From IMG/VR virus record IMGVR_UViG_3300037137_001341, positions 52,238 to 116,237 of that record: a stretch of DNA of 64,000 nucleotides. One strand, given 5' to 3'. Source of the stretch: a virus. The notes under the pieces are model-generated. The model ran no database searches, had not been told where the DNA came from, and was given only the letters and a program-made list of their open reading frames with translations. Made by a program: the position numbers and the translations under genes. This document shows positions 9,438-53,964 of the stretch, piece by piece. The first letter of the stretch is position 1. Every line of letters starts with the position of its first letter.

Positions 9438-9761
9438 TCAGTCCTCGTCGTCGTCGTCCTCGTGACGCTCGCACCACTCGATGAAGCCGGCGATGGCGTC
9501 GAGGATGGTCTCGTAGCCGTCGTCGATCCGCAGGTGCTTCCTGAACTCTTCGCCTGACTTCAGGTCGACCTCTCGGATCTCGTAGCCACACGTCCTCGAC
9601 TCGTCGTTCGCTCCAGCGCCCTTCTCCCAGAAGAACGTGACGGCGACGTCCTCGCGACCGAGACAATCCTCGGCGCGCTCCGTCATGGCCTCCAGAAGCT
9701 CCGTGCCGACCTCGGCGTCTTCGAGGTAGTCCTCTTGGGGCAGGTGGTTGTTCGCGCGCAT
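9438..9761 (-). CDS. Small acidic protein
   Basis: 107 aa D/E-rich, starts MRAN. Confidence 0.65.
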   Translation of the reverse strand: MRANNHLPQEDYLEDAEVGTELLEAMTERAEDCLGREDVAVTFFWEKGAGANDESRTCGYEIREVDLKSGEEFRKHLRIDDGYETILDAIAGFIEWCERHEDDDDED

Positions 9762-9767
9762 GGACGC

Positions 9768-10424
9768 CTACCGGCCTCTCGCTCGCGATTCGTGCTGCGC
9801 CTTCAGCTTCAGCCTGTACCGCTCTCCGGCTGCGAGCCTACTCTGATGCTTCTCGTAGGCACTCGTGTAGTCCGACGGTGAACGGGGGCGGTGCTTGTGC
9901 TGATGCGACTCCCACGCCATGTACTCGGCCGGTGAGCGGTGCATGTTCTCCTCGTACCCCTCCCCAGGCACGTAGTACTCGTACTCGGCGATGCCGCGCT
10001 TCCCGAGCCTTCGCTCTCCCTTGCGCGACTTGCGCCTCCCTCGCCGTTGCCGATGCCAGTCGTCGCCTGGCTTCCGCGGCGCTTCCCTGCCACGCTGGTG
10101 CCGCTTGTTCGGCGTGAGCTTCTTCTGCCCCCACCAGGCGTACCCGAACAGGAGCCCGAGCCCGATGCCGAGCGCAACACCGCCAGCGACCACGCCCCAC
10201 GACGTCTCCTTGTACGTCGCCTCCGGGTCGGCCCCGAGCGCTGCCCAGTGCGGCAGGAAGTCATCCTCCCCCGGGATGCTCTGCCCGAGCCCGCCGATGC
10301 CAACGCGCATGGGGCCCGCACGCAGCGGGTTGATGCCCCAGCCCGGCACCGGCGCGTTCTGCCAGCCAGGCGTCGCGACGGCAAGCTCGTGGTAGTCGGC
10401 GTCAGGCACGTTCCAGTACGACAT
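9768..10424 (-). CDS. Membrane protein: GLG-motif N-domain, central TM, basic tail with LTPN/YEEN
   Basis: IGGLGQS, TM WGVVAGGVALGIGLGLLFGYAWW, R/K-rich tail. Confidence 0.75.
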   Translation of the reverse strand: MSYWNVPDADYHELAVATPGWQNAPVPGWGINPLRAGPMRVGIGGLGQSIPGEDDFLPHWAALGADPEATYKETSWGVVAGGVALGIGLGLLFGYAWWGQKKLTPNKRHQRGREAPRKPGDDWHRQRRGRRKSRKGERRLGKRGIAEYEYYVPGEGYEENMHRSPAEYMAWESHQHKHRPRSPSDYTSAYEKHQSRLAAGERYRLKLKAQHESRARGR

Positions 10425-10563
10425 CGTCTTCTCCTTCGTCCGACGCCATCGCGGGCACCGGGATCGTGTCCCGTTCGTTGTCGACGACCACGCCCCACTC
10501 CCAGGGGGAGGAGGCAAAGTCTTCCTGCGGCTCCTGGTTCTCCTGGTCGGGGTCCGGCGGCAT
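10402..10563 (-). CDS. Small acidic peptide
   Basis: MPPDPDQENQE...; GTGACT-17-TAGACT promoter-like element (10571-10599) 7 nt upstream. Confidence 0.45.
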   Translation of the reverse strand: MPPDPDQENQEPQEDFASSPWEWGVVVDNERDTIPVPAMASDEGEDDVVLERA

Positions 10564-10595
10564 GTGCCCCAGTCTACATGCCCCCTGGGCGCGAG

Positions 10596-10832: not shown

Positions 10833-10835
10833 GAG

Positions 10836-11069: not shown

Positions 11070-11073
11070 CGCG

Positions 11074-11460
11074 CTACACGCCCTTCTTGATCCACCAGGC
11101 AGCGAGGCCGACCGAGAGGACCACCATGCCGGCGATGCCGAGCGCGGCCTTGATCGCGTCGTCCTTGACCATGTCGACCTTGGCGAACGTGATCTCCATC
11201 TGCTTCGCGATCTCGGGACGGATCACCTCGTCCATCACCTTCTTCACGAGCTTCGGCCCGTAGAGGTTCGCCTCGTCCTCCATGTCGTTGATGAGCTTCG
11301 TCTCCAGCGCGTTGATGTCCGGCGTGAGCGAAGCCCACGTGTCGGCGACCATCGCGTCGACCGGCACGACGATCTCCGTGTCCTTGCCCCACGGAAACGG
11401 CGCGTCGACCTTGTAGGTCTTCGTGGGACCGGGGCCTGCGCCGACGCCGTGGTAGCTCAC
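11074..11460 (-). CDS. C-terminally anchored membrane protein
   Basis: GTG start, SYHGVGAG..., PWGKDTEI, TM + KK. Confidence 0.8.
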   Translation of the reverse strand: MSYHGVGAGPGPTKTYKVDAPFPWGKDTEIVVPVDAMVADTWASLTPDINALETKLINDMEDEANLYGPKLVKKVMDEVIRPEIAKQMEITFAKVDMVKDDAIKAALGIAGMVVLSVGLAAWWIKKGV

Positions 11461-12098
11461 GCTGCCGCCTTCTGCTCGTACTCCCGCCGCAAGACCTCGT
11501 AGGCCACGTTGAACTTCTTCAGTCGCTCGACGTTCAATGCGCGCTGCCGATCGCTCTGCGGCCGGTCGGCGTTGTACTTCAACACGAGCTTCCGGTACTG
11601 CCGCTTGATCTGCTCCCAGTTCGAGCGCGGCGGCATCTTCAGCGCCTTGAGCGCCATCGCCACGGACATGCCGCCGGGAGCCTGCTGCGCCGGAGGCGGC
11701 GGGGATTCCTGACGGCCGTTGGTCCATCCCTCGGCGCGCTTCCTGGCCTTCGTCTCCCCGATGCAGACCTCGCAGATCGCGTCCGCCATGTAGTCCACGC
11801 GGGAATGTGCCAGGCAGCACGGGCGCCCGCACACGTCGCACTTCACGACCGCGTACGACCGGCAGGCTCGGGGTCTCCCGGTGCTCACGTCGGGCGAGGC
11901 GCAGGGCGTGGGGGACATGACGGCGAACGTCCACTTCGAGAGCGCGTTCTTCGTGAGATGCGAGCCCCACTCCTTCAGCTGTTCGGCGACCTCCTGAGCG
12001 GCGGTCGAGCTAGCGCCAAGGTTCTGCGCCATGACGGACGCGAACGTCTCCCACGGGATCTCTGCGGTGGCCCGCTTGAGGCGCTCGAAGAGATCCAT
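11457..12098 (-). CDS. Zn-finger + C-terminal J-domain-like protein (HPD replaced by NAD)
   Basis: CDVC..CCLAH..CEVC; WEQIKRQYRKLVLKYNADR...LKKFNVAYEVL. Confidence 0.8.
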   Translation of the reverse strand: MDLFERLKRATAEIPWETFASVMAQNLGASSTAAQEVAEQLKEWGSHLTKNALSKWTFAVMSPTPCASPDVSTGRPRACRSYAVVKCDVCGRPCCLAHSRVDYMADAICEVCIGETKARKRAEGWTNGRQESPPPPAQQAPGGMSVAMALKALKMPPRSNWEQIKRQYRKLVLKYNADRPQSDRQRALNVERLKKFNVAYEVLRREYEQKAAA

Positions 12099-12105
12099 CT
12101 GGCGC

Positions 12106-12801
12106 CTACGCCGCGGCAGCCGGCCGCGTCGCGTAGAAGGCGCCGAGACCGAGCACGGCCCCGATGCCCACGCCGGCCGCCATGCCCATCGGCTTGGTCT
12201 TCTTCCACAGGACGGCACCGAGGAGCCCCGCGACCGCGCCGCCACCGGCGTACATCGCGAGGTTCTTCTTGTCGTCATCCGTGAGCGGAGCCGCCGAGCC
12301 GAGACCGCGCAGATGACCACTGTGAACGACGGGGCGACGGGGAGGCCGCCGGCGCACCCTGCCGAGCCCGGCCGTAGCGCCTGCGTTGTACCAGGCGATC
12401 AGCGCCTTCTGGAAGCCGGCGTTCATGTGTGACCAGTCGTAGTCCGACAGAGACTCTGTCACATCGACGAGCATCATGTCGCACGAGTCCAGCTGGTTGA
12501 ACCGACCGAGCCCGTGCGCCTGACCCTTGTACGCAGACACGGTACACACGGAGATCCACCGTCCTGTATCCGTGTCGGTGTACCCACCGGTGTACCAGTG
12601 GTAGAGCGTGCTGCGGAATGTGTCCGGCAGCGCTTCCCACTCGCTGTCGTCCATGGCTTCCACTGCCGCGACGAGAGCCGCGTCCGTCCCGTCGCTCTTG
12701 TTGTACTGGCCGACGCCGCTGAAGTACTCGCCCATGCCCTTCATCCCGGGCGGCTTGTACGCGAAAAACTCACCCATTCCTGCTGGTGCTTGCTTGTACA
12801 T
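12106..12801 (-). CDS. Putative virion membrane protein with multiple GxG motifs
   Basis: GMGEFF, GMGEYF, HGLG, AGLG, LRGLG; two C-terminal hydrophobic segments. Confidence 0.75.
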   Translation of the reverse strand: MYKQAPAGMGEFFAYKPPGMKGMGEYFSGVGQYNKSDGTDAALVAAVEAMDDSEWEALPDTFRSTLYHWYTGGYTDTDTGRWISVCTVSAYKGQAHGLGRFNQLDSCDMMLVDVTESLSDYDWSHMNAGFQKALIAWYNAGATAGLGRVRRRPPRRPVVHSGHLRGLGSAAPLTDDDKKNLAMYAGGGAVAGLLGAVLWKKTKPMGMAAGVGIGAVLGLGAFYATRPAAAA

Positions 12802-12806
12802 TGGAG

Positions 12807-13856: not shown

Positions 13857-13885
13857 GTGTTCCTCGTTCCTGAGCCTACTCCGGG

Positions 13886-14334: not shown

Positions 14335-14336
14335 GT

Positions 14337-15254: not shown

Positions 15255-15258
15255 CGGA

Positions 15259-15813: not shown

Positions 15814-15819
15814 GGCGCA

Positions 15820-16860
15820 TCACTTCTTTCTCATCACCATGTAGCCGACACCGAGTGCGACGAGCGCGCCGATCCCGAACATAGCCATGGTCGTGCTGCT
15901 CATTCCGGCTTGCTGCGTGCCGCCACCGCCACCGCCGGCGGACGGCGGGACACATGCGCCGGTGACCGGATCACGGGTGTACCCGTAGCCGTATACGGAG
16001 CAGTCGTCGGCCGGCAGGATGTGCTTGGTCGTGTCGGCCTGCAGCACGCAGGTACCGCTGGAGTCCCTGATGTAGCCGGTGTCGCACGGGGTCGGCAGCT
16101 TCACGTCTGCAACGCAGTCGCTTCCGACCAGATGGAAGCCCGCGCTGCACGTCTTGGGTGGTGGCGGCGTCGGCGCCGCTACAGGGATGCAGTTGCCGTT
16201 CGCGTCCCACACGTACCCTGGTGAGCAGTCGCCGACGCACTGGCCCTTGAACATCGAGTGCCCAGGAGGGCACGTCGTCGGGGCGGCGCCCGCAGTTGCC
16301 ACGCAGTTGCCGTTCGCGTCCCAGACATATCCCGGTGAGCAGTCGCCGACGCACACGAACTTCTTCGACGGCAGCATGAACATCGAGTGCCCAGGAGCGG
16401 CAACCGGAACGTCCATGAACTGCTGGTACAGATCCGGGAAGCGATGCAGCGTCCAGCAAGCCGCGTCGAGACTAGGGTTCCGTGGGTAATTGACCGGAAA
16501 CGTCTTGCAGTAGTTGATCTCGTTCCGAAAGACGGTCCCGACTTCCGACGTATCGGTGCATCCCGGAATCATGGCGATCCATGGCGCCGTGTCGATGTCC
16601 GAGCAGCCCAGCTTCTTGAACATGCCGCAGGTTCCGAGTGCAGCACGCGCATCCTGGAACTGCTGGTCGGTCAAGTTGGCCGGCTTCTGGCCGGTGTAGA
16701 ACAGCGACAGGATCTGGATCATCTGCGCGCTGAGACACGGCGCGTTAGCCAAGTCCGCGGGGCAGCCGTTCACTGCGATCCCGTAGAGCAGGTACGCGAC
16801 CTGATCCGGCGTCAGCGGGGCCTCGGCGGCCCCGAGTCCTCTCATCTCTCTGTACGTCAT
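15820..16860 (-). CDS. Cys-rich C-terminally anchored protein
   Basis: MTYREMRGLG leader; two CVGDCSPGYVWDANGNC modules; TM + RKK. Confidence 0.85.
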   Translation of the reverse strand: MTYREMRGLGAAEAPLTPDQVAYLLYGIAVNGCPADLANAPCLSAQMIQILSLFYTGQKPANLTDQQFQDARAALGTCGMFKKLGCSDIDTAPWIAMIPGCTDTSEVGTVFRNEINYCKTFPVNYPRNPSLDAACWTLHRFPDLYQQFMDVPVAAPGHSMFMLPSKKFVCVGDCSPGYVWDANGNCVATAGAAPTTCPPGHSMFKGQCVGDCSPGYVWDANGNCIPVAAPTPPPPKTCSAGFHLVGSDCVADVKLPTPCDTGYIRDSSGTCVLQADTTKHILPADDCSVYGYGYTRDPVTGACVPPSAGGGGGGTQQAGMSSTTMAMFGIGALVALGVGYMVMRKK

Positions 16861-17693
16861 CGCCGACGGTTCCTTGCCAGCTGCCGCGAGGCAGGCGTGT
16901 AGGAGCCGCCGATCCTGGGCGCCCGCTTCGACCAGAGCATGTACCCCAGCACCGCGGCTCCGAGGCCCACGGCGATGGGCAAGCTCAGGTTCGTCTTGGT
17001 GTCCACGGAAGGCGTCGTCGGGACGAGCTTGATCGGCGGCGCGGCAGGCGGCCCCGTCGGCACCGTGACCGGCGTCGCGATCGTCATCTGCGCCGTCAGC
17101 GCATCCTGGAAGGACGAGGTCGCCGGGGTCGAGCGCGTCGTCGAGCCCTGCGACGGGATCTGCGCCGCGAAGACGAGTGCACCACCGACGGCGGCGGCTC
17201 TCGGCGCGATGGTGAGCGTGTGCTTCGGCAGCTGGGACATGTCGATGCGCTCGCCCCAGTGGAGGAACGCAATCGTCGGGACGGGCTTCGCGTCGTCCTG
17301 CCGGTAGACGGCCTGCGTCTCGTACGCCTTGTACGCCGTCCCCTTCCACATTGCGTCGATCGACGCCTGCGTCATCGGGCCCTTCGTGATGATCGCTACG
17401 AAGGGCAGCGGGGAGCCGTAGGACAGCTGCATGGCCGCAGCGATCTGGTCGTCGTTCAGGCCCCAGAGCACGATGTTCGTGTCCGGGTTCGTGATCTCCT
17501 CCCAGGTCGTGTCGCTCGTGCGCGACGCCCACGGCGTGTACGTGCCGAGCACCTGGAGGTCCAGCGCCGTGGTGAGTTCCGAGAAGATGCTCTGCGCCGG
17601 CATGTCCCCGAGGGACGTGCCCGGGGGCGCCGGGATCATGCGCAGCGAGTCCCAGGCCGCGCCCGAGCCGCCATGCTCCATGTAGGAGGACAT
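16857..17693 (-). CDS. C-terminally anchored membrane protein
   Basis: GTSLGD near N-terminus, P/T linker, TM, tail ending LARNRRR. Confidence 0.75.
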   Translation of the reverse strand: MSSYMEHGGSGAAWDSLRMIPAPPGTSLGDMPAQSIFSELTTALDLQVLGTYTPWASRTSDTTWEEITNPDTNIVLWGLNDDQIAAAMQLSYGSPLPFVAIITKGPMTQASIDAMWKGTAYKAYETQAVYRQDDAKPVPTIAFLHWGERIDMSQLPKHTLTIAPRAAAVGGALVFAAQIPSQGSTTRSTPATSSFQDALTAQMTIATPVTVPTGPPAAPPIKLVPTTPSVDTKTNLSLPIAVGLGAAVLGYMLWSKRAPRIGGSYTPASRQLARNRRR

Positions 17694-17847
17694 CACCACG
17701 GGAGCCTCACTCGCTCGCCCGCAGAAGCCAGCCGGCCGCCGTTTCCCGAGCACGACTCGGCTGCCAGCATGTCCGACGCTGGAGCGGTTGCCGATGCCCG
17801 CCGAAAGAGCGACGTCGGCCGACTGGCCTCTACGGGTGAACGAAAAG

Positions 17848-21147: not shown

Positions 21148-23661
21148 TCAGCCGCCGCTGAGCACCCCGTTCCCACCAGGACCCTGGAGGATCCCCGCGG
21201 GAAGCTCGGACTCCGTGTAGTGCGCGTCCGCAGAGGTCGTCCCGGCCCAGAGAGGACCGTTCGGGATCCACTGCGACTGCGTCGGCACGGTGCTCTCCGC
21301 GAACCCGCCGTTGCTCGGCGAGGCCGTGAAGAACTCACCGAGCCCCGCAGCAGCCTGCCCAGCGACCGCCTGCGTCGCGCCCTGACCCAGTCCAGCAGCC
21401 GACTCGGCGAGATCCAGGATCTGATCCAGGTTCGCGTCGGGACGGATGCCGTCGTCGATGGGAAGCTGCCCCATGTGCGAACGACCGGGCATGAGGGCGA
21501 GCGGGCCGGCCTTCTCGTAGAATCCCACTCCCTGGGTGCCGGGACCAGCGAAGTACTCGCCCACGCCCGAGGCGGGCTTGAAGTACTCGCCCACGCCGGC
21601 GTGCGCCTGCGTGAACTGCGGTGCCTGCCCGATCGATGCGTACTGGGGCATGATCGAGTGAGCGTTCTTTGCGATGCCGAGGCCTCGCAGGTGACGCGGC
21701 TGGTAGCGACCCGAACCGCGCAGCGCGGATGCCCGGCTGTTCGAGTAGCCGTCGAGGTACGAGAGCACCTGCGGCTGGTTGGCCGCAGTGAGTGCCGTCC
21801 GAACGAAGGACTCCAGGAAGGAGACCATCATACCGGCCGACACCGCCATCCTGGTCTCGACCTTGACGGCCTTGACCATGGACATGCCCGCGATGCCCAC
21901 GCCACCGATGACGAGGCCCGTGATGGGCTTCTGCCAGGTCGCGATGATCGACTGCTTGCCGTTGGAATCGACGACCGCCATGCCCGCGAACGTGGTGCCG
22001 TCAGCCGACGTCAGCGCCTTCACTGCCGCGCCCGTGAGGGCTCGGTGCGCGAAGAAGCCGATGAGGATGAGGCCGCCCGTCTTGAGCAGCGCCGTCATGT
22101 CCCCGGCGAACCCGTTCTTGAGGTACCGGTTCGCGTGAAGCCGACGACCGAGCCCGTGACGGCGATGACGCCTGCTGTGGCGCCGACGCCGGCTGTTCTC
22201 CTCGTAGTGCCTGTTCCGCACGAGGTACAGGCCGCGCTTCAGACGGCGGACCTTCCGACGACCGATGCGACGCGGCACTCCACGCACGCGACGGGACTTG
22301 CTCTTGCGCTTCGCGACCTTGCGCTTGCCGCGCTTCTTGCCGCCCTTGCCCTTGGCCTTGCGCGTACGCCACGCCTTCCGCGCAGCGGCTGCACGCTTGG
22401 TGCTCTTGCGCTTCCCCTTGCGCTTCGCGACCTTGCGCTTGCCGCGCTTCTTGCCGCCCTTGCCCTTGGCCTTGCGTGTACGCCACGCCTTCCGCGCAGC
22501 GGCTGCACGCTTGGTGCTCTTGCGCTTCCCGCTCTTGCGGGACTTCGCCTTCTTCTTCTTCTTTCTCGCCTTGGCCATTCTCTTCGCTCCCGCGTTGGGT
22601 GTGAACGCATCCATGCCTCGCTCGACACGAGCGGCAGCAGCCTTGCGGCGCTTCGCGATCCGATCGCGCGCCTTCTTGTACGCCTCGACGTTCTTGTAGT
22701 CCTTGGCGCTGATCGCCCCCGCGATTGCCCACTCGGGGATCTTGCGGAGCCGCTTGCCCTTGCGGGTCATGTAGCTCAGCCCCCGCGCGCCCCGGCGCGG
22801 GTTGTAGAGGCTCGCCCGACGGAACGGACCGTAGGCCACGCGCGCCCGGTGCCCGCTCTTGGAGGTCTTCGACTGCTTCGGCCACTTGGACTTCACGGCC
22901 TTGCGGTGCCGCTTCGCCACGTTCGCCGGCAGCATCCGCTTCGCCTCGCGGATCTTCTCTTTCTCGGCCCGGATCTTCAGCCGCTCGATGGCCTTGTTCT
23001 CGCGCTGCACCGCCTTCTCGGCCTGCGTCTTCGCGCGCTCCATCGCCTTCCCCGCCGCCTTGATCCGCTTCTCGGCCGCCTTGATCCGCTTCTCGGCCGC
23101 CTTCACGGTCTTCGACGCGCGCTTGCGCTTGGCCGGAGTCGACGTGGCCGCCGCACCGCGACGCCCCGACGCCTCCTGCCAGTGCTGCCACGGAGTCTTG
23201 CGTGGAGAAGATGAGGAGGAAGCAGCAGCGCGACCCTTCCCGAAGGTGGCCTCGTGAGAGGCCTCGTAGGCCTCCCGCTGCGCCTTGGTCTGCCGCTTGG
23301 ACAGATTGCGCCGGAGCCCGCGCTTCCGCGTGCGACCGCCACCTGCTGCGCGACGGTTTTCCTGCATGCGCCGCACGAAGGCGGCGCGGTGAACTCCGTT
23401 CGATGACATTGCCATGCTTCCGCTCCTGTTGGCCATGAGGCGCCGAGCGCGAGCAACGCGCTCGGCGCGGGACAGACCGTGGACTGCGCTGCGAGCGGAG
23501 TGGGCACGCGCATAGGCCCCGGGGCCATTCACCGCCGAGAGCGTCGTGACGCCCATGGGGTTCGGCCGGTAGCTGCCGGCGTTCGGCCGCGCCATGCGGT
23601 ACGCGCCCACATCCGCCTTGCGGATGGGGAACGCGCGACCGATTGCTTTGCGACTTGCCAC
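21148..23661 (-). CDS. Very basic, membrane-anchored putative core/DNA-condensing precursor protein
   Basis: About 510 aa K/R/A-rich N-part, three hydrophobic segments, C-part with GVGEYF/GLGEFF repeats. Confidence 0.8.
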   Translation of the reverse strand: MASRKAIGRAFPIRKADVGAYRMARPNAGSYRPNPMGVTTLSAVNGPGAYARAHSARSAVHGLSRAERVARARRLMANRSGSMAMSSNGVHRAAFVRRMQENRRAAGGGRTRKRGLRRNLSKRQTKAQREAYEASHEATFGKGRAAASSSSSPRKTPWQHWQEASGRRGAAATSTPAKRKRASKTVKAAEKRIKAAEKRIKAAGKAMERAKTQAEKAVQRENKAIERLKIRAEKEKIREAKRMLPANVAKRHRKAVKSKWPKQSKTSKSGHRARVAYGPFRRASLYNPRRGARGLSYMTRKGKRLRKIPEWAIAGAISAKDYKNVEAYKKARDRIAKRRKAAAARVERGMDAFTPNAGAKRMAKARKKKKKAKSRKSGKRKSTKRAAAARKAWRTRKAKGKGGKKRGKRKVAKRKGKRKSTKRAAAARKAWRTRKAKGKGGKKRGKRKVAKRKSKSRRVRGVPRRIGRRKVRRLKRGLYLVRNRHYEENSRRRRHSRRHRRHGLGRRLHANRYLKNGFAGDMTALLKTGGLILIGFFAHRALTGAAVKALTSADGTTFAGMAVVDSNGKQSIIATWQKPITGLVIGGVGIAGMSMVKAVKVETRMAVSAGMMVSFLESFVRTALTAANQPQVLSYLDGYSNSRASALRGSGRYQPRHLRGLGIAKNAHSIMPQYASIGQAPQFTQAHAGVGEYFKPASGVGEYFAGPGTQGVGFYEKAGPLALMPGRSHMGQLPIDDGIRPDANLDQILDLAESAAGLGQGATQAVAGQAAAGLGEFFTASPSNGGFAESTVPTQSQWIPNGPLWAGTTSADAHYTESELPAGILQGPGGNGVLSGG
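22303..22530 (-). repeat. 114-bp tandem duplication encoding a 38-aa basic repeat
   Basis: KRKSTKRAAAARKAWRTRKAKGKGGKKRGKRKVAKRK twice; copies at 22303 and 22417. Confidence 0.95.
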
Positions 23662-34324: not shown

Positions 34325-35020
34325 TCACTTCTTCATCAGGGTCGCGGCCACGATGCCGACCGCGACGCCGACGATGGCGAATCCCGCGAAGATGCCGAAC
34401 TTGGAGCCGGAATCCGTCGCCGGAGCATCGGCACCGAGCCCGTTCACTGGCCACGCCTCCTCGTTCGGGATCCAGGTCCCGCCGGGATCGGGATGCGTGA
34501 CGTTCTGCGGACTCACGCCGGGAGGAAGCTCCCAGAGCAGCTGCCTCTCGCGCACGGTGTCCAGCTGGCTCTGATCGATCGCGACCGCGCCGCCGGGCAC
34601 GTACATGACGGGCTGGCCAGTGGTCGCGTCGATCACCTCCGACGGCTGGTAGTCGATCGAGTTCACCAAGTAACCCGGCATCGAAGCGTGGTCCGCGAAC
34701 ACGCCGTAATCCGGGTGGATGTTCCCCTGCGTGCCGTGCGGATCGAACACGCCATTGCCTTGTACATCGTCCGCTGCTGCGAGCGTGTTTAGCTCGTTCG
34801 CGTAATCCTTGATTCCGATGTCTGCGGTCATGCCGTTGTCTCCCAGGCCCGCGATGTTGCGCCCACGCGCGCCGCGGTACATGTCGTACGAAGGGTTCAT
34901 GCCGCTCGGACGCATGTCCGGCGGCCCGATCTCGTCGATGCTCGGAAGGTCGCCGCCGAACATCGGCTGGCTCGCGTACACCGGGTACGGGGGACGCAGG
35001 GCTCGAAGGACGTTGCTCAT
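34325..35020 (-). CDS. C-terminally anchored membrane protein
   Basis: IAGLGDN, VNGLGAD; TM + KK; AAGGAG RBS. Confidence 0.8.
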   Translation of the reverse strand: MSNVLRALRPPYPVYASQPMFGGDLPSIDEIGPPDMRPSGMNPSYDMYRGARGRNIAGLGDNGMTADIGIKDYANELNTLAAADDVQGNGVFDPHGTQGNIHPDYGVFADHASMPGYLVNSIDYQPSEVIDATTGQPVMYVPGGAVAIDQSQLDTVRERQLLWELPPGVSPQNVTHPDPGGTWIPNEEAWPVNGLGADAPATDSGSKFGIFAGFAIVGVAVGIVAATLMKK

Positions 35021-35607
35021 GTGATGCTCCTTGGCGCTCCCGGATCTTCATCGAGGCTCACCGTGTAAAAAGTCGTCACACGATCGAGCATGCCGCGCTC
35101 GTCCGTGCCCCCGACGGGGTCACAAACTACCCATTCCCCGCTTCGCGGTTCCTTCACGCGCGTGAACACGTGGCTGTACTGGCCGGCCTCACCGAAGCCG
35201 ACGACCACGAACTCGGCGACGCGGCCAAGCTGCAACGCCATCGTCGCGATGATCGTCGCCATGTCATCGCAATCACCGATCGCACTTCCGTGCGCGGCTA
35301 CTTCCTCGACGAGCCTCTGTGCGTCCTTCACGAGTTCGGTGTGCAGGGGGTCGTTGACGTAATGAACGCGCTCCGTCACCCAGTACCGCACCGCCAGGAT
35401 CTCGCCGAGGTAGTCCTTCGGCTGCACCTGTCGAACGATCTGCTCGACCATGCTCCGCACGAGCATGCTCTTCTCGCCCCGTTCGCCATGCGTCGCGCTC
35501 ACCATGGCCCGGAGTGTGTCCGGGTGACCATGAAAAGCGCTCAATGAGTGTGGCGGGTTAGCGGAGAGCAAGGGTATCCCGAGCCGGGGGTCGGGAGCGC
35601 CCTGCAC
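35017..35607 (-). CDS. Transglutaminase-like (papain-fold) Cys-His-Asp enzyme, putative maturation protease
   Basis: YVNDP, GDCDD, YSHVF, WVVCDP: catalytic triad in transglutaminase order. Confidence 0.85.
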   Translation of the reverse strand: MQGAPDPRLGIPLLSANPPHSLSAFHGHPDTLRAMVSATHGERGEKSMLVRSMVEQIVRQVQPKDYLGEILAVRYWVTERVHYVNDPLHTELVKDAQRLVEEVAAHGSAIGDCDDMATIIATMALQLGRVAEFVVVGFGEAGQYSHVFTRVKEPRSGEWVVCDPVGGTDERGMLDRVTTFYTVSLDEDPGAPRSIT

Positions 35608-46065: not shown

Positions 46066-46066
46066 G

Positions 46067-47278: not shown

Positions 47279-47288
47279 CGCCCCTCAC

Positions 47289-48300: not shown

Positions 48301-48536
48301 CAGTCCTCCTTGTCCCAGGCGATGACCTCCGACAGCGCGTTCATCACCGCGTCGTGCACGGCCGTGACGACAGTCTCCTCGTCCGGCTTGTTTGTGTGCT
48401 TGCGCGCATGCACGAGGCCGTACCGCACGCCCGCGTTCACGCAGTCGTTGATGATGGCATACGCGCGGAAGCGCACCTGCACTCCGGTCGCCAGCGGCTT
48501 CCGCCGCCTGCGCTTCACTCGCTTCCTCGCGACCAT
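48297..48536 (-). CDS. Small basic hypothetical protein
   Basis: MVARKRVKRRRRK..., coupled. Confidence 0.6.
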   Translation of the reverse strand: MVARKRVKRRRRKPLATGVQVRFRAYAIINDCVNAGVRYGLVHARKHTNKPDEETVVTAVHDAVMNALSEVIAWDKEDW

Positions 48537-48844
48537 CAGTTCACCGGGGGCATCGGTGCCGCTGCAGCGACGACCGACGGCGGCCTGACCATCTCGTCCA
48601 GGAACCAGCGAAGCTCGTCGGCCTCCTTCTGGATCTTCGTGATGTCCGTCTCGTCGGCGACGGCGAGCGTGACGGACACGCCGCTGCGCGAGATCGAGAC
48701 GCTCTCGACCTCCACCGCGGAGAGCGACGTGATGACGCCGAGCGCCTGCTTGATCTCCGGGAGGCGGTTGTCCCAGTGGCGCGCCCACCACCACGGAGTG
48801 ACGTTGCTGACGAGAGAATGGCCCGAATAGCTGCTGTTGCTCAT
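48536..48844 (-). CDS. Hypothetical protein
   Basis: First gene after a promoter-like element. Confidence 0.55.
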   Translation of the reverse strand: MSNSSYSGHSLVSNVTPWWWARHWDNRLPEIKQALGVITSLSAVEVESVSISRSGVSVTLAVADETDITKIQKEADELRWFLDEMVRPPSVVAAAAPMPPVN

Positions 48845-48845
48845 G

Positions 48846-48881
48846 GCTAGCTACCTTGCGGCTAGCCAAGTGCTTCGTCAA
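48846..48881 (-). promoter_or_regulatory. Promoter with two GCTAGC sites
   Basis: TTGACG-17nt-CAAGGT; GCTAGC at 48846 and 48861. Confidence 0.5.
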
Positions 48882-48947
48882 CGGCCAGTTTTCAGGGGAA
48901 CATGACCACGCGATTTTCTTTCGCGGGCATGTGACGGCGAACGCGAT

Positions 48948-49703
48948 CTACGGAGTGGGTTTGCCGCCGAGGCGTCCGAGGAACGGTGCGCCAGCGGCGG
49001 TGCGGGCCTTGATCGGCGCCGTCGCGGTCGCCTCGGTCTTCGAGGCCGACGAAGTCGGCCAGCCCTGATCGAACTTGAGTTTGTCCTTCAGCTTCATCAG
49101 CTTGTCGAGCGCTGGTGACGACTTCGTCGGGGCGTTGCCGCGCGGCAGCGGCGGGAAGTCGATGAAGCCGCCGATGGCGTTCATCAGCCGCGTTCCCTTC
49201 GCGGCGCCCGCGCTCATGTTGTAGATGACGAGCGCCTCCTCAAAGTCGTTCCCCGGACTCTTGTCCACGAGACGCTGAGCCATCGGTGAATACTGGTCTG
49301 CCAAGTCTGCGGCGGTGCCCGCAAGAGAGAACTCGAACCCCCAAAATTCCGGGAGGAAATTCTCCGGCGTAGGAGTGCCACCGAACGCTACGGCGAGCAG
49401 GTTGATGTTCGGCTGTATGAAGATCAGCGGCACGAACGTCAGCGAGAGCGTGAACGTGTGCCCGTCTCCGGCGCCGGCAAGCTCAGCGTCCGCAAGGCCC
49501 AGCAGGAGCTGGGAAGGGAAGTCCACTGCGATGAGTGCGTTCTGGGCAACGACAGAGTCCAGCGCCTCCTGGGCTTTGAGAGCCATCTCGTCTGCTTCGG
49601 CCGCCTGGACACATACCTCCAGGAACGGACGAATGGGCGTGGAAGGCGGGAGAGACGCAAAGAAGAGCCGGGGACTGAGCAACACCAGTGGCGAGATGGC
49701 CAT
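48948..49703 (-). CDS. Stand-alone homolog of the spike N-terminal domain
   Basis: LAGAGDGHTF and AGAAKGTRLM match LTGAGDGHMF and AGAAKGQRVM of 6948-9146; own promoter TTGACT-17-CAATCT (49710-49738). Confidence 0.75.
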   Translation of the reverse strand: MAISPLVLLSPRLFFASLPPSTPIRPFLEVCVQAAEADEMALKAQEALDSVVAQNALIAVDFPSQLLLGLADAELAGAGDGHTFTLSLTFVPLIFIQPNINLLAVAFGGTPTPENFLPEFWGFEFSLAGTAADLADQYSPMAQRLVDKSPGNDFEEALVIYNMSAGAAKGTRLMNAIGGFIDFPPLPRGNAPTKSSPALDKLMKLKDKLKFDQGWPTSSASKTEATATAPIKARTAAGAPFLGRLGGKPTP

Positions 49704-49734
49704 GGCCCCAGATTGCCAGGACACATGCCTGTAG

Positions 49735-50409
49735 TCAACGCACGAGCGAGCGGACCTCTTTCGCTGCGTCTTCAAGCCCCCCGGTGACGTCCAAGTGCCC
49801 GGTCGGCACGGCGTCGGGGCCCGTCGGGTCACCCTCCCAGAATGTGACCTGCCAGACGATGCCGGGCCTGGTCGAGCGGGTGATGCTGACCCAGCCGCGG
49901 TAGCTGCCGGTGCGGCGGAGGCTCATGCTCTCGTCGCGCATGGGGGAGGCGAACGCTCCGGTGCGCGCGACTTCTGAGCGCACATGCTCAGCGAAGGCGT
50001 CGCGCTCGTGTCGGAGACGGGCCGCGAACACCGCGAGTGGCTCGCGCGGGTTGTTCCTGTACTTCTCGTTGACCGAGACGCCGCTGCCTCTCGGGTAGCG
50101 CATCCCGAGTCGCCTGAGCAGCGCCTTGCGCGGACGGTCGTGCAGGTCGATGTTGTCGTAGCCGATGCGGTCCTCGTCGAACAGATCGAGAAGCTCCTCC
50201 AGCCGGTCCTGAGACACGTCTGCGTATGCGTCACGGTACTCGACGCCGCGCTCTTCGTGACCCGACACCCGCAGCTTGCCTTCGACCGCATCGACAAGCG
50301 GCTCGGCGCCCCTGTACATGTCCGCCGTCTCGTCCCACGTCGCGCACGCCTCCTCGTCAGCATCCGGTTCGAGCATGCTGCACGTAAGCTCGATCGTTGC
50401 GAACTTCAC
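49735..50409 (-). CDS. Two-domain hypothetical protein with YRNNP linker
   Basis: GTG start; acidic N-domain; C-domain WQVTFW...PTGH. Confidence 0.65.
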   Translation of the reverse strand: MKFATIELTCSMLEPDADEEACATWDETADMYRGAEPLVDAVEGKLRVSGHEERGVEYRDAYADVSQDRLEELLDLFDEDRIGYDNIDLHDRPRKALLRRLGMRYPRGSGVSVNEKYRNNPREPLAVFAARLRHERDAFAEHVRSEVARTGAFASPMRDESMSLRRTGSYRGWVSITRSTRPGIVWQVTFWEGDPTGPDAVPTGHLDVTGGLEDAAKEVRSLVR

Positions 50410-50729
50410 AGCATCCTCGCCGCGAGCTTCGCAAGCCGCGCCGGGCTCGGCGAGTACGCCCACATGATCAACGCCAGGTGCCTGCGCGTTGGCACGCCGT
50501 CCTTCCAGAGCGGCTCACCATGCGCCTTCACCTGGGCCATGTGCCTCGCCACGAAGTTGTCGCGCTTCAGCGCCCAGTGCTCCGACAGCCGATTCGGATC
50601 TCCGCCGGCACGTCGGTACGCGGTCATAAAGCCACGCGGGCTACGAGCTACGACCGACACGCCGAGCTTTCTGGCTGCGGACATGTACTGGTCGATGAGC
50701 CAGAGGCTCAGGTAGCGCGGACTGCTCAC
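50406..50729 (-). CDS. Small basic hypothetical protein
   Basis: 107 aa, coupled. Confidence 0.65.
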   Translation of the reverse strand: MSSPRYLSLWLIDQYMSAARKLGVSVVARSPRGFMTAYRRAGGDPNRLSEHWALKRDNFVARHMAQVKAHGEPLWKDGVPTRRHLALIMWAYSPSPARLAKLAARML

Positions 50730-51769
50730 AGCGCCTCTCTCCCGTTCTCGACCAGCGCCTCCTCGATGTCCTTCCCGCCCGCCGTCGGCGTGTGCCCCGG
50801 ATCGAAGATCACGATGCGGTCCCAGTCATCGGCGTCACGCGCGACGTGCCAGCCGATGTTCAGCAGGTGTACGTCGCGCAGGTAGACGCCGTGCGACGCG
50901 AGCATGTTCAGGGACTCGCCGAGTGGAGCGGCGGCGGGACCGTTGAACATCGTCTCGACGACGCGGTTGATCTTGTACTCGGCGTCTTCCAACGACTTGG
51001 AATGAAGCCAAAACTGGGACGGGCTCGTACGAGGATTCTTCCGCTTGTGCCACTCGGTCGCCAGCATCCGGTACTTGCCGAGACCATCGAGCGCCACGTC
51101 TAAGTCCTGCGCCCCTGGGCCGTAATCTTTTAGGGCCGGAGATCGAAGCCCTAGCGGGAGCCCGTACTTCCCGCGCGTGAAATCGCTGAAGTGCAGACTG
51201 TCACGTCGGTTCACGAACACCGGCACGACATTCTCACGCACGATCGCCCAGACCTTCTTCTTCCGTCCGCCGTACACGATGTCCGGCGTGATCCGGTGGA
51301 TGCTCTTGATCTCCGGGAAGCCCTGAAGGCCCCACTGCTCGTCCCGTACGAGCCCAGCGATCTTCGACCAGATCGGCCCCTCTGTCGGATCGATCGAGAG
51401 CTTCACGACCCACGGTGGCGTGCTCTCGAAGACGCAGCCCCAGTGGCCGCATCCGAGCATCGCGCCGAGCGGCATCCCGATGGCCGCCTCGATCTTGTCG
51501 CGCTTCGTGAGCAGCTGCTCGACCCACGCCTTCTTGCGTACGTTCGCCACGTACTCGTCCTCGTCGTACGGCAGCGCCTCCAATCCTTCGCGCGTCCGCA
51601 CCATCACCACGGCGGCGCGTGTCGCGAGGAAGGCATCTCCAGGCTCTACGCCTGACTCGATCATACTCTCGGCGACGTCATCCGGCTCGACGCCGTACAC
51701 GGAGAGCGCCGCAGCCGCGCGCTGGATCAGGTCGTCGATGTCGCTCCGGGCGAAGTGCTCGGGGTTCAC
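50726..51769 (-). CDS. Protein kinase-like protein
   Basis: LGCGHWGCVF (Gly loop), VVK, RDVHLLNIG (catalytic loop), IVIFDPG. Confidence 0.8.
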   Translation of the reverse strand: MNPEHFARSDIDDLIQRAAAALSVYGVEPDDVAESMIESGVEPGDAFLATRAAVVMVRTREGLEALPYDEDEYVANVRKKAWVEQLLTKRDKIEAAIGMPLGAMLGCGHWGCVFESTPPWVVKLSIDPTEGPIWSKIAGLVRDEQWGLQGFPEIKSIHRITPDIVYGGRKKKVWAIVRENVVPVFVNRRDSLHFSDFTRGKYGLPLGLRSPALKDYGPGAQDLDVALDGLGKYRMLATEWHKRKNPRTSPSQFWLHSKSLEDAEYKINRVVETMFNGPAAAPLGESLNMLASHGVYLRDVHLLNIGWHVARDADDWDRIVIFDPGHTPTAGGKDIEEALVENGREAL

Positions 51770-51975
51770 GCGACCTCGGGTGCCGGCAGCCGCCGGATCG
51801 TGTGCACTCCCCTCGGGCACGGCGGGTGCGCGACTTCCAGCGGGTTCATCTTCGGGGTCATCCGGCAACCGAGCTTCGAGCAGCAGTCGGCGTCCACCTC
51901 GGCGGCTTCCTGGCTCACGTACGGGAAGTGCCGCACGAGGCCGTCAGGGCATATGATCTGCCACCAGTCGGTCAC
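51766..51975 (-). CDS. Small Cys-rich hypothetical protein
   Basis: 69 aa, fills operon gap. Confidence 0.5.
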   Translation of the reverse strand: MTDWWQIICPDGLVRHFPYVSQEAAEVDADCCSKLGCRMTPKMNPLEVAHPPCPRGVHTIRRLPAPEVA

Positions 51976-51978
51976 GGG

Positions 51979-53964
51979 TCACCCGGCGCCCGAGTGCCAC
52001 TCGACTGACCACCCGTCATCCCCGCCGTACTTGCTCCGCGCGTACTGTGCTGCCTCGCGGTAGCTGCCGAAGCTGGTCGGGTCGATGTCGCCACCAACGA
52101 CGTGGATGCGCCAGGCGCTGCCTGGGACGTGCCACTTCCCACCCTCCGCGTTCGCCGCCATGTCCCCCGCGTTCGTCTCCAGGTGCATGCGCTCCGGCTG
52201 CAGCCACTCGACGCTGGTGCCCAGACTGCGCACTCGACTCACTCCTGGCCCGGGATGGCGCTGCATCTGTTCCGCCTGCGCAGACGCACCCTCGTACGCG
52301 CCTTCGCCTTGGCCGTAGCCCATGACGCCCCAGACGTAGCCGCGTGGGGCGCGCTCACCAGAGAACGGACTCACTGAGTACACGCGGTACGTGCCGTACC
52401 TGGAGAACTCCCCCGAGGCGTTCGCCGCCATGTTCACCGCGAAGTGGTGCGGCTTCGTATAGCTCTCGCGCGGCGCCGACGGATCGAACGGCTTCGATGA
52501 TGGCGGGGGCGGGGGGCGGCGGGCGTTCTCTTCGTAACCAGACACCGGCTGCAGATTATCGGCAGCCGTCGTCCACTCGGTCAGGTTCACGCCGGGCACC
52601 CGGTCGATCGCTACGACGTCCGCGGCGACACCACCTGGAACCCTACGCATGCTCTTGATCCGAACACGCTGGCTCCCGTGGAAAAGAGCGACGTCTCCGA
52701 CGGAGAGCCCGAAGTGTCTCTGCACAGCCTCGTCCCAGTTGGCGACGAGCTTGCGCTGGTTCCCGGCGTACCCGCGCTCCGCGAGCCACGTTTGCTCGAA
52801 CTCGTGCGCCGCCTCGGACGCGCTGAAGCCCGCCTGGTACAAGTGCCGCCAGTACTCGGCCTGCGCTTCACCAAAGTGATAGCCACCTCGTTCGAGCAGA
52901 ATCGACACGTCCTCGACCCAGTTCGCGTAGCTCGGGCCGCCGCGCCTGTTCCCTTCGTAGTCAGCGTCGGACTGCCTCCACCGCATCGTTGCCACCGTGC
53001 CAAGTTCTGGCGTGGTGACATCGACATCGCTACCGCCGTGGTACTCGTAGAACTCGGCGTCCGGGTACATCTTCAGCAGCCACCGTTTGGCTTCCAGGAG
53101 GGCAGACTTGCGCGTGTTGTCTGGGTAGCCGGCGAAATCGAAATCCCAGCCCGTCGCAAGAACCACTTCGTAACCGGATCGACGGTTCTTCACGAGCCCA
53201 TGCATGCCCGGCGGGAGCATCTCCCTCGCCGCCGCCTGCGCGTCTTCACGTTCCTCGCGCTCCTGCGCCGCGCCGCCACCGAACGCACGCCGCAGCGCCG
53301 CGACGTTCTCGGACTCCGCCGGTGCTGCAGCCGCTGCAGCAGCAGCCGGCTTCTTCCTCGGCTTCGGCGCTGGAGCAGCCGGTGCCGGCAACGCCCGTGT
53401 CACCGGAGCATATCCCCCAGGCGCGAGGTACTTGGCCATGCCGGGCGGCAGCATCCCATGCACGTAGGCTTCGTGTTCTTCCTGCCGCTGCGCAGCCGGG
53501 ACGAGGGCCTGTACCAGCGCGGCGCGTTGCTCCGGCGGCAGGACATGTGCTGGCAGCCCGGCCATGAACTGCTCCTCGGCCAAGACCAACGCGATCTCGA
53601 AGTCCTCGTCGGTCGCCTGCCCCCTGGCGCTCACCCCGTCGGCGGTGAGCATCAGGTCGAACTCGTTCTTCGCGGCGCCGAAGGTCAGGTGCGCGCCGTG
53701 CTGGTACAGGAACTCGTACAGGCGCGCCTCGAAGTCCGGGTCGATGCGCTTCGTGCGAGCACGTGACCCCATCGCCGCATTGAGCACGGTCTCGATGCTC
53801 ACGTCATGGAACTCGCCGCCGGGGTCGATCGTGATCTTGAACCCATCCGGCGTCACGCCGATGTCCACGACGCTCTTGGACTTCGACAGCCACTCGACGA
53901 GCTTGTTCTGGTAGCTCGGGTCGAGGTCGTGAAGCGTGACGTCGTCGGGATTGCTGCGGCCCAT
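51979..53964 (-). CDS. Polyprotein-like multidomain protein with Asn-motif linkers
   Basis: Small domains separated by LVKN, YEGN, YAGN/LVAN, YEEN, FAVN/MAAN, LETN/MAAN; TTGCGC-18-TAGCCT upstream. Confidence 0.75.
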   Translation of the reverse strand: MGRSNPDDVTLHDLDPSYQNKLVEWLSKSKSVVDIGVTPDGFKITIDPGGEFHDVSIETVLNAAMGSRARTKRIDPDFEARLYEFLYQHGAHLTFGAAKNEFDLMLTADGVSARGQATDEDFEIALVLAEEQFMAGLPAHVLPPEQRAALVQALVPAAQRQEEHEAYVHGMLPPGMAKYLAPGGYAPVTRALPAPAAPAPKPRKKPAAAAAAAAPAESENVAALRRAFGGGAAQEREEREDAQAAAREMLPPGMHGLVKNRRSGYEVVLATGWDFDFAGYPDNTRKSALLEAKRWLLKMYPDAEFYEYHGGSDVDVTTPELGTVATMRWRQSDADYEGNRRGGPSYANWVEDVSILLERGGYHFGEAQAEYWRHLYQAGFSASEAAHEFEQTWLAERGYAGNQRKLVANWDEAVQRHFGLSVGDVALFHGSQRVRIKSMRRVPGGVAADVVAIDRVPGVNLTEWTTAADNLQPVSGYEENARRPPPPPSSKPFDPSAPRESYTKPHHFAVNMAANASGEFSRYGTYRVYSVSPFSGERAPRGYVWGVMGYGQGEGAYEGASAQAEQMQRHPGPGVSRVRSLGTSVEWLQPERMHLETNAGDMAANAEGGKWHVPGSAWRIHVVGGDIDPTSFGSYREAAQYARSKYGGDDGWSVEWHSGAG

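Follow-up and report, generated by a model that had tools for sequence, protein, structure and literature searches.

The 64,000-nucleotide stretch analysed here (the window) encodes on its minus strand a large basic core protein, a modular 661-aa protein, a small transglutaminase-like protein and two membrane proteins with basic tails. A giant tyrosine recombinase gene lies just upstream of the window and represents a third family, besides those of the core and 661-aa proteins, in which the tetrapeptide hydrophobic-x-x-Asn recurs.

9768..10517, minus strand: membrane protein, basic tail with LTPN and YEEN; tail in G000 only
16857..17753, minus strand: membrane protein, basic tail ending LARNRRR; tail in G000 only
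21148..23661, minus strand: core protein gene, 837 aa; 91 homologues, AF2 model
22114..23661, minus strand: core basic N-terminal half, residues 1-516, 11 motif copies; 11/16 Asn against an 8.8% background
35017..35607, minus strand: transglutaminase-like protein, 196 aa, candidate enzyme; Pfam PF01841
51979..53964, minus strand: 661-aa modular ORF, defined by homologue comparison
52150..53196, minus strand: variable part of the 661-aa ORF, 10 motif copies

The core protein, whose start in the database lies 22 codons later than that of the 837-aa ORF, comprises a basic N-terminal half, hydrophobic helices and a C-terminal GEYF-repeat domain. Lysine makes up 15% of its residues, and a glycosyltransferase gene stands head to head with its own. 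The 91 homologues range from 460 to 830 aa and are 34-74% identical in the C-terminal half. A preliminary description of this DNA had counted L, M, Y or F three places before (at -3 of) 11 of the 16 Asn in the basic half, and that count is exact for residues 1-516 of the translation (binomial P 7e-9, the four residues together forming 8.8% of the composition), as against 0 of 8 Asn in the C-terminal half. Across 90 homologues, 633 of 1227 basic-region Asn carry one of these residues at -3, with 124 expected. When all residue pairs at distances 1-6 were ranked in 40 non-redundant core sequences without the window's own protein, the top three couplings were Met (z 25.7), Tyr (18.5) and Phe (16.6) with Asn at +3; Asn follows at that distance about 24% of Met and about 22% of Phe in the basic regions.

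Some ten sites per core protein fall in conserved columns within predicted linkers, where they keep their position while the flanks diverge, and two of them are invariant over 32 aligned homologues. The sites of the window's own protein are the following.

23560..23571, minus strand: YRPN, residues 31-34, first conserved site; motif in 19/19 occupied rows
23428..23439, minus strand: LMAN, residues 75-78, C-terminal end of a predicted helix
23398..23409, minus strand: MSSN, residues 85-88, predicted coil; motif in 16/17 column Asn
23356..23367, minus strand: MQEN, residues 99-102, end of the conserved HRAAFV helix; 17/17
23305..23316, minus strand: LRRN, residues 116-119, predicted coil; 18/18
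22921..22932, minus strand: LPAN, residues 244-247, kink between two long helices (AF2 model)
22594..22605, minus strand: FTPN, residues 353-356, closes the conserved central domain; Phe and Asn invariant, 32/32
22195..22224, minus strand: LVRN and YEEN, residues 480-489, inside an arginine tract
22114..22140, minus strand: LHAN and YLKN, residues 508-516; last Asn invariant, 32/32

The first of these sites precedes a conserved segment, PMGVTTL..VNG.GAY, and the first hydrophobic (membrane) helix begins one residue after the invariant last Asn. The position of YEEN is kept in the G001 and G002 orthologues, and some relatives carry tandem RRRYEDN units in the LVRN/YEEN region. In the AF2 model, 8 of the 11 sites lie in coil, three are no more than two residues away from the end of a helix, and none is inside a helix core or strand. 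Family members carry between 4 and 17 sites each, mostly in low-confidence coil.

The core family defines the motif in some detail. Asn is fixed and M, F, Y, L or V occupies -3 in 67% of cases against a background of about 15%, with Met, Phe and Tyr accepted and Ile not. Gly is depleted at -1 and -2 (1.2-1.3% against 7.6% background), -1 favours Pro, Ala and Lys/Arg, and +1 favours R, G, A and P, so that the motif Asn is usually followed by R, K, A, G or P; the +2 position is enriched for F, I and R. Such preferences at several positions would be expected if the peptide were bound in a groove. Within the arginine tract, acidic residues are about twofold enriched at -1 (YEEN, YEDN), which argues against DNA contact by the motif. 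An N-glycosylation sequon was considered and rejected, as S/T is not enriched at +2; PglB-type enzymes would instead call for an acidic residue at -2. The residue after the Asn is Pro at 9% of the sites in the core family and at 18% of those in the 661-aa family; most endopeptidases spare bonds before Pro, and its presence counts against a processing site. The sequence is compatible with more than one scissile bond: a cut following Phi-[K/R] would also fit papain-like P2/P1 rules.

The 661-aa protein is without a Pfam or PHROG domain, and its modular architecture is visible only through comparison with homologues, which reveals that a conserved domain of some 170 aa at the N-terminus gives way to variable modules with the motif between them (LVKN, YPDN, YEGN, YAGN, LVAN, YEEN, FAVN, MAAN, LETN and MAAN in the window's ORF). 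In seven homologues the motif accompanies 43 of 78 Asn, with 17 expected (P 1.6e-10), and 15 further representatives have it at 55 of 95 Asn in their variable part, with 19 expected (P 6e-16); enrichment in this part is found at offset -3 only. Of 207 module pairs, 147 align all the way to both ends of the module. A 79-aa module confined to the window's ORF is enclosed by LVKN and YEGN, both of which precede RR, and because N-R-R is repeated at both junctions its ends are fixed only to about three residues. Likewise, a conserved 31-aa peptide has the motif on both sides and unrelated modules after it. In the recombinase family, offset -3 is again the most enriched (468 of 1226 Asn against 282 expected, 48 homologues), and 118 of the 146 Asn in the last 150 residues of the same homologues carry the motif. 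Two alignment columns show it in every row that has Asn (39/39 and 35/35), the two invariant sites coming after an acidic variable linker and ahead of a conserved C-terminal tail.

Judged by these sequence comparisons, three unrelated protein families share hydrophobic-x-x-Asn as a genuine, conserved signal of the recognition type. The families belong to an uncultured group of large bacterial viruses (about 90 core-protein clusters, contigs up to 182 kb) and carry it at predicted linkers, helix ends and module seams. The preliminary description had proposed an Asn-directed cleavage site or packaging signal; a recognition-type signal in at least three unrelated families, placed in linkers, supports part of that proposal. 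Its further claim that the motif generally marks basic or internal proteins does not hold, as outside the three families the motif occurs at background frequency.

We give roughly even odds (a probability of about 0.5) to the reading in which the motif is a trans-read recognition site for site-specific precursor processing; the cut itself, its position after Asn, the identity of the enzyme and the virion location of the substrates are what we infer. Location in linkers and at helix ends, coincidence with the boundaries of an indel and of conserved blocks in the 661-aa family and an invariant site directly before the membrane helix of the core protein all fit a processing site. In this model, a viral or host enzyme would read [M/F/Y/L/V]-x-x-N in trans, with endoproteolytic processing the most likely outcome. 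The protamine-like half of the core protein would be severed from its membrane anchor and chopped into about ten arginine/lysine-rich peptides together with small conserved domains, the 661-aa family would release interchangeable modules, and the giant recombinase would lose its conserved C-terminal tail.

A comparable arrangement is found in adenovirus, where the protease AVP cuts pVII, pre-mu (pX) and other virion precursors at sites such as M-R-G-G and I-V-G-L|G (PMC4246237). There too several unrelated precursors share a short consensus in which a hydrophobic residue stands three positions ahead of the decisive one, and the substrates include protamine-like DNA-condensing proteins. In pre-mu, sites delimit a basic peptide, after which comes a hydrophobic segment, and the last core-protein site here adjoins the membrane helix in the same way. 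However, adenovirus uses Gly-Gly in place of Asn and has one or two sites per protein rather than about ten; its enzyme belongs to clan CE (adenain/Ulp1-like, C5/C48), not detected here, whereas our candidate is transglutaminase-like. Furthermore, cleavage is demonstrated in adenovirus and only predicted for the present sites, and the host here is bacterial.

Within bacterial viruses, internal and ejection proteins of T4-like and phiKZ-like (SPN3US) phages are processed by a prohead protease (PMC5694885, PMC7411985). This system likewise acts on many head-internal proteins and on targeting peptides through a motif of three or four residues, the last of them fixed, with propeptides removed after packaging; its fixed residue is Glu, not Asn, and the enzyme is a serine protease with the herpesvirus-assemblin fold. 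The motifs in this type of processing are L/I-x-E and A/S/G-x-E. No prohead-type protease gene, portal or terminase was detected in this genome, and no structural hallmark was found in it by Pfam, PHROGs or PDB sequence search. A further parallel is provided by the polyvalent proteins of phages and conjugative elements, which are built of multiple swappable modules and, in the view of Iyer et al. (2017, PMC5512222), accompany the DNA on delivery and are split into individual units by processing. This genome encodes PcfJ and other conflict-type domains. A zincin-like peptidase domain is usually part of a polyvalent protein itself, and no defined motif at the seams is described for such proteins; they are recognised by 2-15 identifiable conflict or enzyme domains, often with a peptidase in cis, a composition that the 661-aa ORF does not show.

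A second protease in the genome, a possibility raised in the preliminary description, has one candidate: the 196-aa transglutaminase-like Cys-His-Asp protein encoded at 35017..35607, which matches PF01841 with 27.5 bits (cut-off 23, E 4e-6; 28.7 bits in a six-frame search). Pfam scans of about 150 ORFs returned no other protease family except wall-type M23, and no Peptidase_C5, C48 or C57. Cys113, His146 and Asp163 are invariant in five orthologues; orthologues are 65-72% identical, lie 8-11 kb from the core gene and occur in all core-bearing records checked with a completeness of 45% or more. In the nearest ESM Atlas clusters the share of PF01841 is 63-66%, and the protein has no PDB sequence relative. 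Its AF2 model has a pLDDT of 42, and its agreement with a papain-like core is limited to the order helix(Cys)-strand(His)-strand(Asp). Members of the transglutaminase-like superfamily have this triad too, the Cys standing at the N-terminus of a helix and His/Asp on or near successive strands; they include the peptidases that remove lasso-peptide leaders and PeiW/PeiP, pseudomurein endoisopeptidases of phages. Site-specific leader cleavage has precedent in the fold, and PeiW/PeiP are lysins. We know of no member that acts as a virion maturation protease or requires Asn. By analogy with PeiW/PeiP the gene may instead have a lytic role, and small transglutaminase-like proteins of a similar kind are widespread in other viral clusters. 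What makes the protein a candidate reader of the motif is conserved synteny together with its being the sole peptidase-like fold found; co-occurrence with the core gene is expected of any two clade-core genes.

A broader and more doubtful scenario is that the whole clade (uncultured, G+C-rich viruses of bacteria, about 110-180 kb in size) matures its particle by means of a new hydrophobic-x-x-Asn protease of transglutaminase fold that frees protamine peptides and cargo. A membrane-anchored 'poly-protamine' precursor would here give rise to about ten DNA-condensing peptides, and cargo modules and enzymes would be freed from their targeting parts; in a variant, the enzyme would take the Asn side chain as acyl donor and cross-link cargo and core. 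If the motif is indeed a cut site, it would represent a protease specificity new among viruses, and the maturation enzyme would probably be of a new type as well. Bacterial viruses would then, like adenoviruses, condense their DNA by means of protamine-like peptides released by processing, in a counterpart of the AVP/pVII/pre-mu system made from unrelated parts, and a simple sequence rule would predict the mature products and packaged cargo of a widespread uncultured virus group. The motif is directly amenable to peptide and co-expression work.

Several alternatives to processing have to be weighed. It is unlikely, in our view, that the tetrapeptide serves for docking or packaging without cleavage, as a repeated ligand that tethers core and cargo proteins to a pocket on the capsid inner face, a membrane protein, a packaging adaptor or a chaperone. 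Preferences at several positions, linker location and occurrence in three families would fit docking equally, ten copies per core protein would give avidity, and Pro at +1 is no obstacle to binding. However, docking gives no reason for the motif to fall at an indel junction, at the ends of conserved blocks and exactly at the membrane-helix junction, and it is without an identified partner.

Rather less probable is an Asn-directed modification, with the Asn carboxamide acting as acyl donor for the candidate enzyme to form an Asn-Lys isopeptide cross-link with the lysine-rich core or the capsid, or being deamidated, or, less likely, with Asn being glycosylated. The candidate enzyme's superfamily does include true transglutaminases and deamidases, and lysine is abundant in the core protein. 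Isopeptides between Lys and Asn occur in the HK97 capsid and in pilins, and substrates of microbial transglutaminase resemble YEEN-ARRP in that an aromatic residue stands at -3 and Arg-Pro follows the Gln. Glycosylation could draw on the gene beside that of the core protein and on the many viral glycosyltransferases. Yet transglutaminases act on Gln, not Asn, no S/T sequon follows the motif Asn, and the seam position and indel junction are better explained by cutting.

Helix capping deserves mention as an improbable alternative, in which the motif would be an intrinsic turn element that breaks long basic helices without any trans reader. Three core sites are at helix ends, one Asn stands directly before a helix in the AF2 model, and Asn, Gly and Pro are classic helix terminators; but most sites are in low-confidence coil, and the enrichment of Pro at -1 indicates that the tetrapeptide itself is not helical. 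Punctuation of this kind would also hardly refuse Ile at -3 while accepting Met, Phe and Tyr, nor recur at the module seams of non-basic, non-homologous proteins. Autocatalytic cleavage at Asn through a succinimide, without a protease, is more improbable still. Asn-Pro and Asn-Gly bonds are the most prone to this chemistry and several viral coat proteins self-cleave at Asn, but known asparagine peptide lyases have a single self-cleaving site in a folded catalytic context, against 4-17 in disordered, low-confidence linkers here, and the required hydrophobic residue at -3 would be left unexplained. Chance, or a pattern drawn post hoc, agrees with the background frequency elsewhere in the proteome and is rejected for the core, 661-aa and recombinase families by independent homologues, with P from 1e-10 to far below.

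For the scattered instances in other proteins, chance is the best reading. Without the core protein, 77 of 452 Asn in the window proteome (17%) carry the motif against a 16% background, and the enrichment across ORFs that would attend a general mark is not seen in four related proteomes without core (804 of 3248 against 757 expected, z 1.9), where hydrophobic -3/Asn comes 44th among 240 anchor/offset pairs. Non-core proteins show no enrichment in their basic regions (31 of 140 against 24.4 expected, P 0.09), protein starts of the form MxxN are at chance, Asn being no commoner at position 4 than at 2 or 3, and extended patterns reach only z ~2. Since most hydrophobic-x-x-Asn matches outside these families are chance, the rule is not for proteome-wide use. 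About half of the instances listed in the preliminary description (MRAN, MKRN, YRNN, LTPN, LARN, YVAN and LVEN) are present and indistinguishable from chance; MKRN, listed as a protein start, stands at an internal Met of ORF 17848-18294, and the ORF at 50726-51868, said there to be a kinase, has no Pfam match. The LARN of 16857-17753 is among these, and orthologues of this gene and of 9768-10517 are without the motif-bearing basic tails, those of the latter in G001 and G002 stopping just past the TM helix. The recurrence of YEEN in three proteins was correctly reported: it is present in 9768-10517, 21148-23661 and 51979-53964, with 0.07 copies expected in the genome, and the 9768-10517 product, though its sites are indistinguishable from chance, is a possible extra substrate.

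The hydrophobic-x-x-Asn motif ([M/F/Y/L/V]-x-x-N, counted mostly as L, M, Y or F at -3) is genuine in the core protein and is shared by two other protein families, while its generalisation to basic or internal proteins, as advanced in the preliminary description, is unsupported. The three families are represented here by the following genes:

21148-23661, minus strand: core protein, 837 aa, with a basic N-terminal half (residues 1-516), hydrophobic helices and a C-terminal GEYF-repeat domain
51979-53964, minus strand: modular 661-aa protein, with a conserved N-terminal domain followed by variable modules
47881-52236 of the full source record (L037:7881-12236), plus strand: giant tyrosine recombinase, 1451 aa, PF00589

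Translation of the core gene reproduces exactly the count first reported for residues 1-516, in which 11 of the 16 Asn carry L/M/Y/F at -3 (binomial P 7e-9, these four residues making up only 8.8% of this half); the C-terminal half has the motif at 0/8 Asn. The eleven motif Asn are residues 34, 78, 88, 102, 119, 247, 356, 483, 489, 511 and 516. When the C-terminal half was used as the query, 91 similarly built proteins, 34-74% identical, were retrieved, and in the basic regions of 90 of these homologues, the window's own protein being omitted, L/M/Y/F stood at -3 of 633 of 1227 Asn against 124 expected. Enrichment at this position is strongest for Met (x7.7) and Phe (x6.9), followed by Tyr (x4.9), Leu (x3.3) and Val (x3.0), and is not seen for Ile; Pro is over-represented at both -1 and +1, and Gly at +1. 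An unbiased scan covering every residue pair 1-6 positions apart in 40 non-redundant core basic regions, again omitting the window's own protein, ranked M+3N (z 25.7), Y+3N (18.5) and F+3N (16.6) first, second and third; in core basic regions, one in four Met and one in five Phe have Asn at +3. Each protein of the family carries 4-17 copies (median 10), and the unit has been amplified in some lineages, for example as tandem RRRYEDN. Conserved motif columns fall at 12, 56, 66, 80, 97, 334, 461/467/476 and 494 of the alignment (database-form numbering). Two columns are invariant: an F-x-x-N at the close of the central conserved domain, and a motif abutting the first hydrophobic helix. Six additional, divergent homologues, reached via the transglutaminase-like gene considered below, also show the signal. 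The lysine-rich part of the core includes a 38-aa tandem duplication (22300-22530, minus strand) in which the motif is absent. The word GEYF, the "first motif" of the preliminary description, is found 18 times in four genomes where 0.5 would be expected, C-terminal to the core membrane segment (21148-22000, minus strand) and in other proteins of two related genomes, G001 and G002.

The 661-aa ORF is the next most enriched protein after the core. Its seven homologues have the motif at 43 of 78 Asn (17 expected, P 1.6e-10), and an exhaustive search with the N-terminal domain yielded 15 further representatives in which, downstream of that domain, 55 of 95 Asn bear it (19 expected, P 6e-16) with other offsets unenriched. 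The usual context is G-[Y/L/M]-x-x-N-[A/P/R]-R-R-P. In the alignment, a 79-aa module unique to the window's protein lies between LVKN and YEGN; since both are followed by RR, its boundaries can be placed no more precisely than the repeated N-R-R. Conserved blocks extend to Asn, with 147 of 207 module pairs reaching both module ends, and a conserved 31-aa peptide has the motif on both sides, the modules downstream being unrelated among homologues. No stand-alone copies of these modules were found in the four genomes. A peptide of the form (P)FDP....R..Y.K.HHFA[VI]N (52432-52536, minus strand) is kept in the source record and in its relatives G001, G002 and G005, as well as in most homologues, always with the motif at its end.

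The recombinase gene ends one base before the window starts. Among its 48 homologues (900-1570 aa), enrichment peaks at offset -3 (468/1226 against 282 expected), and in the last 150 residues the motif accompanies 118 of 146 Asn. Two columns carry it in every Asn-bearing row (39/39 and 35/35), with a variable acidic linker on one side and, on the other, a conserved C-terminal tail that ends ..LPSA[IL]RMM.AMT..F.

Beyond these families the picture is different. Basic stretches of non-core proteins gave 31 of 140 Asn against 24.4 expected, and in the window without the core the motif covers 17% of Asn against a 16% background. Across four proteomes, a hydrophobic residue at -3 of Asn ranked 44th of 240 anchor/offset pairs (z 1.9), with no over-dispersion at -3 beyond that at other offsets. 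A conservation-aware test on 53 orthogroups, the core excluded, was weak (17/74 against 9.6 expected, rank 32/240), and extended regular expressions combining the motif with basic residues reached only z about 2 outside the core and 661-aa families. The individual tetrapeptides first listed all exist, YEEN being present in the three proteins named for it, but MKRN begins at a Met inside its ORF, not at the start; more generally, MxxN starts are at chance level, Asn being as common at protein position 4 as at 2 or 3. Some homologues begin at a motif Met and may come from truncated or split genes. The LTPN/YEEN tail of 9768-10517 and the LARN tail of 16857-17753 (minus strand) belong to membrane proteins whose basic C-terminal tails follow a TM helix in this genome only; the tails are absent from orthologues, which in G001 and G002 end right after the helix. 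Given these null tests and missing tails, scattered instances outside the enriched families are indistinguishable from chance. The true start of 9768-10517 probably lies 31 codons downstream of the annotated one. Motif depletion in the capsid-candidate orthogroup (3/64, 19054-20163) was set aside as a signal, because swings of comparable size are seen at other offsets and its orthologues are not independent of one another. ThyX has the motif at 7 of 11 Asn (P 0.009). The protein holding YVAN and LVEN was called a kinase, a label without Pfam support; as an anecdotal observation, a kinase-like protein retains L-[LV]-x-N at the C-terminus in three genomes and here has two additional copies ahead of a fused extra domain.

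The anatomy of the sites gives an indication of how they may be read. Gly is nearly absent at -1 and -2 (about 1.2% against 7.6%), K/R, A and P are favoured and hydrophobic residues disfavoured at -1, acidic residues at -1 are ~2x enriched within arginine tracts, and +1 is occupied by R, G, A, K or P. In an AF2 model of the core (mean pLDDT 60), 8 of the 11 sites lie in coil and the remaining 3 within 2 residues of a helix end, in agreement with a location in linkers, and the last motif Asn immediately precedes the first hydrophobic helix; a fold search of the PDB with this model gave no match below E 0.6. This is the pattern expected of an extended peptide that another protein reads, rather than of helix periodicity or DNA contact. 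Helix periodicity or capping was rejected as the source of the motif, as was a DNA-level, AT-rich-codon or internal-start origin: Val and Leu are enriched at -3 but Ile is not, and Phe and Tyr, which have non-start codons, provide a quarter of sites.

A search for a second protease, proposed at the outset, yielded one candidate:

35017-35607, minus strand: transglutaminase-like protein, 196 aa (PF01841, 27.5 bits against a cut-off of 23)

Besides wall-type M23, this is the only peptidase-type fold recognised by Pfam in ~150 ORFs. It is among the clade's best conserved genes (65-72% identity among relatives), with Cys113, His146 and Asp163 invariant, and lies 8-11 kb from the core gene in all checked core-bearing records at least 45% complete. 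Eight of 11 further records reached via this gene hold a core homologue, the other three being fragments 17-38% complete. PDB sequence searches with the protein returned nothing, and an AF2 model from five sequences (pLDDT 42) was too low for a fold search. Given this low-confidence model and the frequency of similar small transglutaminase-like proteins in other viral clusters, the connection of the candidate with the motif is only circumstantial. Three of five orthologues carry L-S-x-N-P-P at the N-terminus.

The best available reading, to which we give a probability of roughly one half, is that the motif is a site-specific processing signal, putatively for cleavage. In this model, hydrophobic-x-x-Asn in exposed linkers would be the recognition site of an endopeptidase acting in trans, which may be the transglutaminase-like protein; the core precursor would be cut into basic peptides and small domains and detached from its membrane anchor, the 661-aa protein would be split into modules, and the recombinase tail would be separated. 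We infer a cut after Asn (Asn as P1), which would fit the indel junction and the conserved block ends. In 9-18% of sites Asn is followed by Pro, which most proteases would not tolerate there; a papain-like alternative, with the hydrophobic residue as P2, is possible. Docking without cleavage, whereby the same extended peptide would be bound by another protein, is a doubtful alternative, set beside the block ends and the indel junction at Asn. Asn-directed cross-linking, deamidation or glycosylation would place the chemistry on the fixed residue itself and seems unlikely. Intrinsic structural punctuation, to which the helix-end positions might be ascribed, is very unlikely, helix periodicity and capping having been rejected. 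Self-cleavage is highly improbable.

The closest functional analogue of the proposed processing system is adenovirus maturation, in which AVP cleaves protamine-like pVII and pre-mu, among other precursors, at short consensus sequences where a hydrophobic residue stands three positions ahead of a Gly pair (PMC4246237). The likeness lies in the short consensus, the hydrophobic residue at -3 and the protamine-like substrates, cleavage being only proposed here. The system is not a member of the adenovirus type: the fixed residue here is Asn, and Pfam scans of ~150 ORFs detected no clan CE protease. Head maturation of the T4 and phiKZ types and the polyvalent proteins described by Iyer et al. (PMC5512222) offer further analogues. 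The present analysis adds a statistical limit to the motif claim, second and third putative substrate families with seam evidence, and the co-occurrence of a candidate enzyme. A literature search found no published description of either the motif or the virus group.

The window is the final 64 kb of a 116,237-bp IMG/VR record, 66% G+C and estimated to be 85% complete, with genes densely laid out and mostly on the minus strand. Recognisable genes encode a DnaB-type primase-helicase, a replication initiator, a RecE-like exonuclease and several glycosyltransferases, and the virus also encodes GroES (Cpn10), a DnaJ-domain protein, ThyX, NUDIX, RuvC and metallophosphatase (11457-12320, 45154-46065 and others). 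The region upstream of the window encodes wall hydrolases, vWA proteins, PcfJ and the recombinase. This set of replication, chaperone, wall hydrolase, PcfJ and recombinase genes points to a bacterial host. Neither Pfam nor PHROGs detected a terminase, portal, HK97-type or jelly-roll capsid or FtsK-type ATPase in ~150 ORFs of the source record and G001, G002 and G005; PHROGs gave zero matches to structural-region ORFs, tblastn zero matches to cultured phages, and PDB sequence searches with an 880-aa ORF and a capsid candidate nothing. The related records include some of 111-138 kb that carry direct terminal repeats, and the three compared in full (G001, G002 and G005) are all complete with terminal repeats. 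A 732-aa fibre-like protein (6948-9146, minus strand) has YadA_head repeats and matches PHROG 25468 (E 1e-72), and the word SHAEG, found ~20x in the genome, is probably located in this protein.
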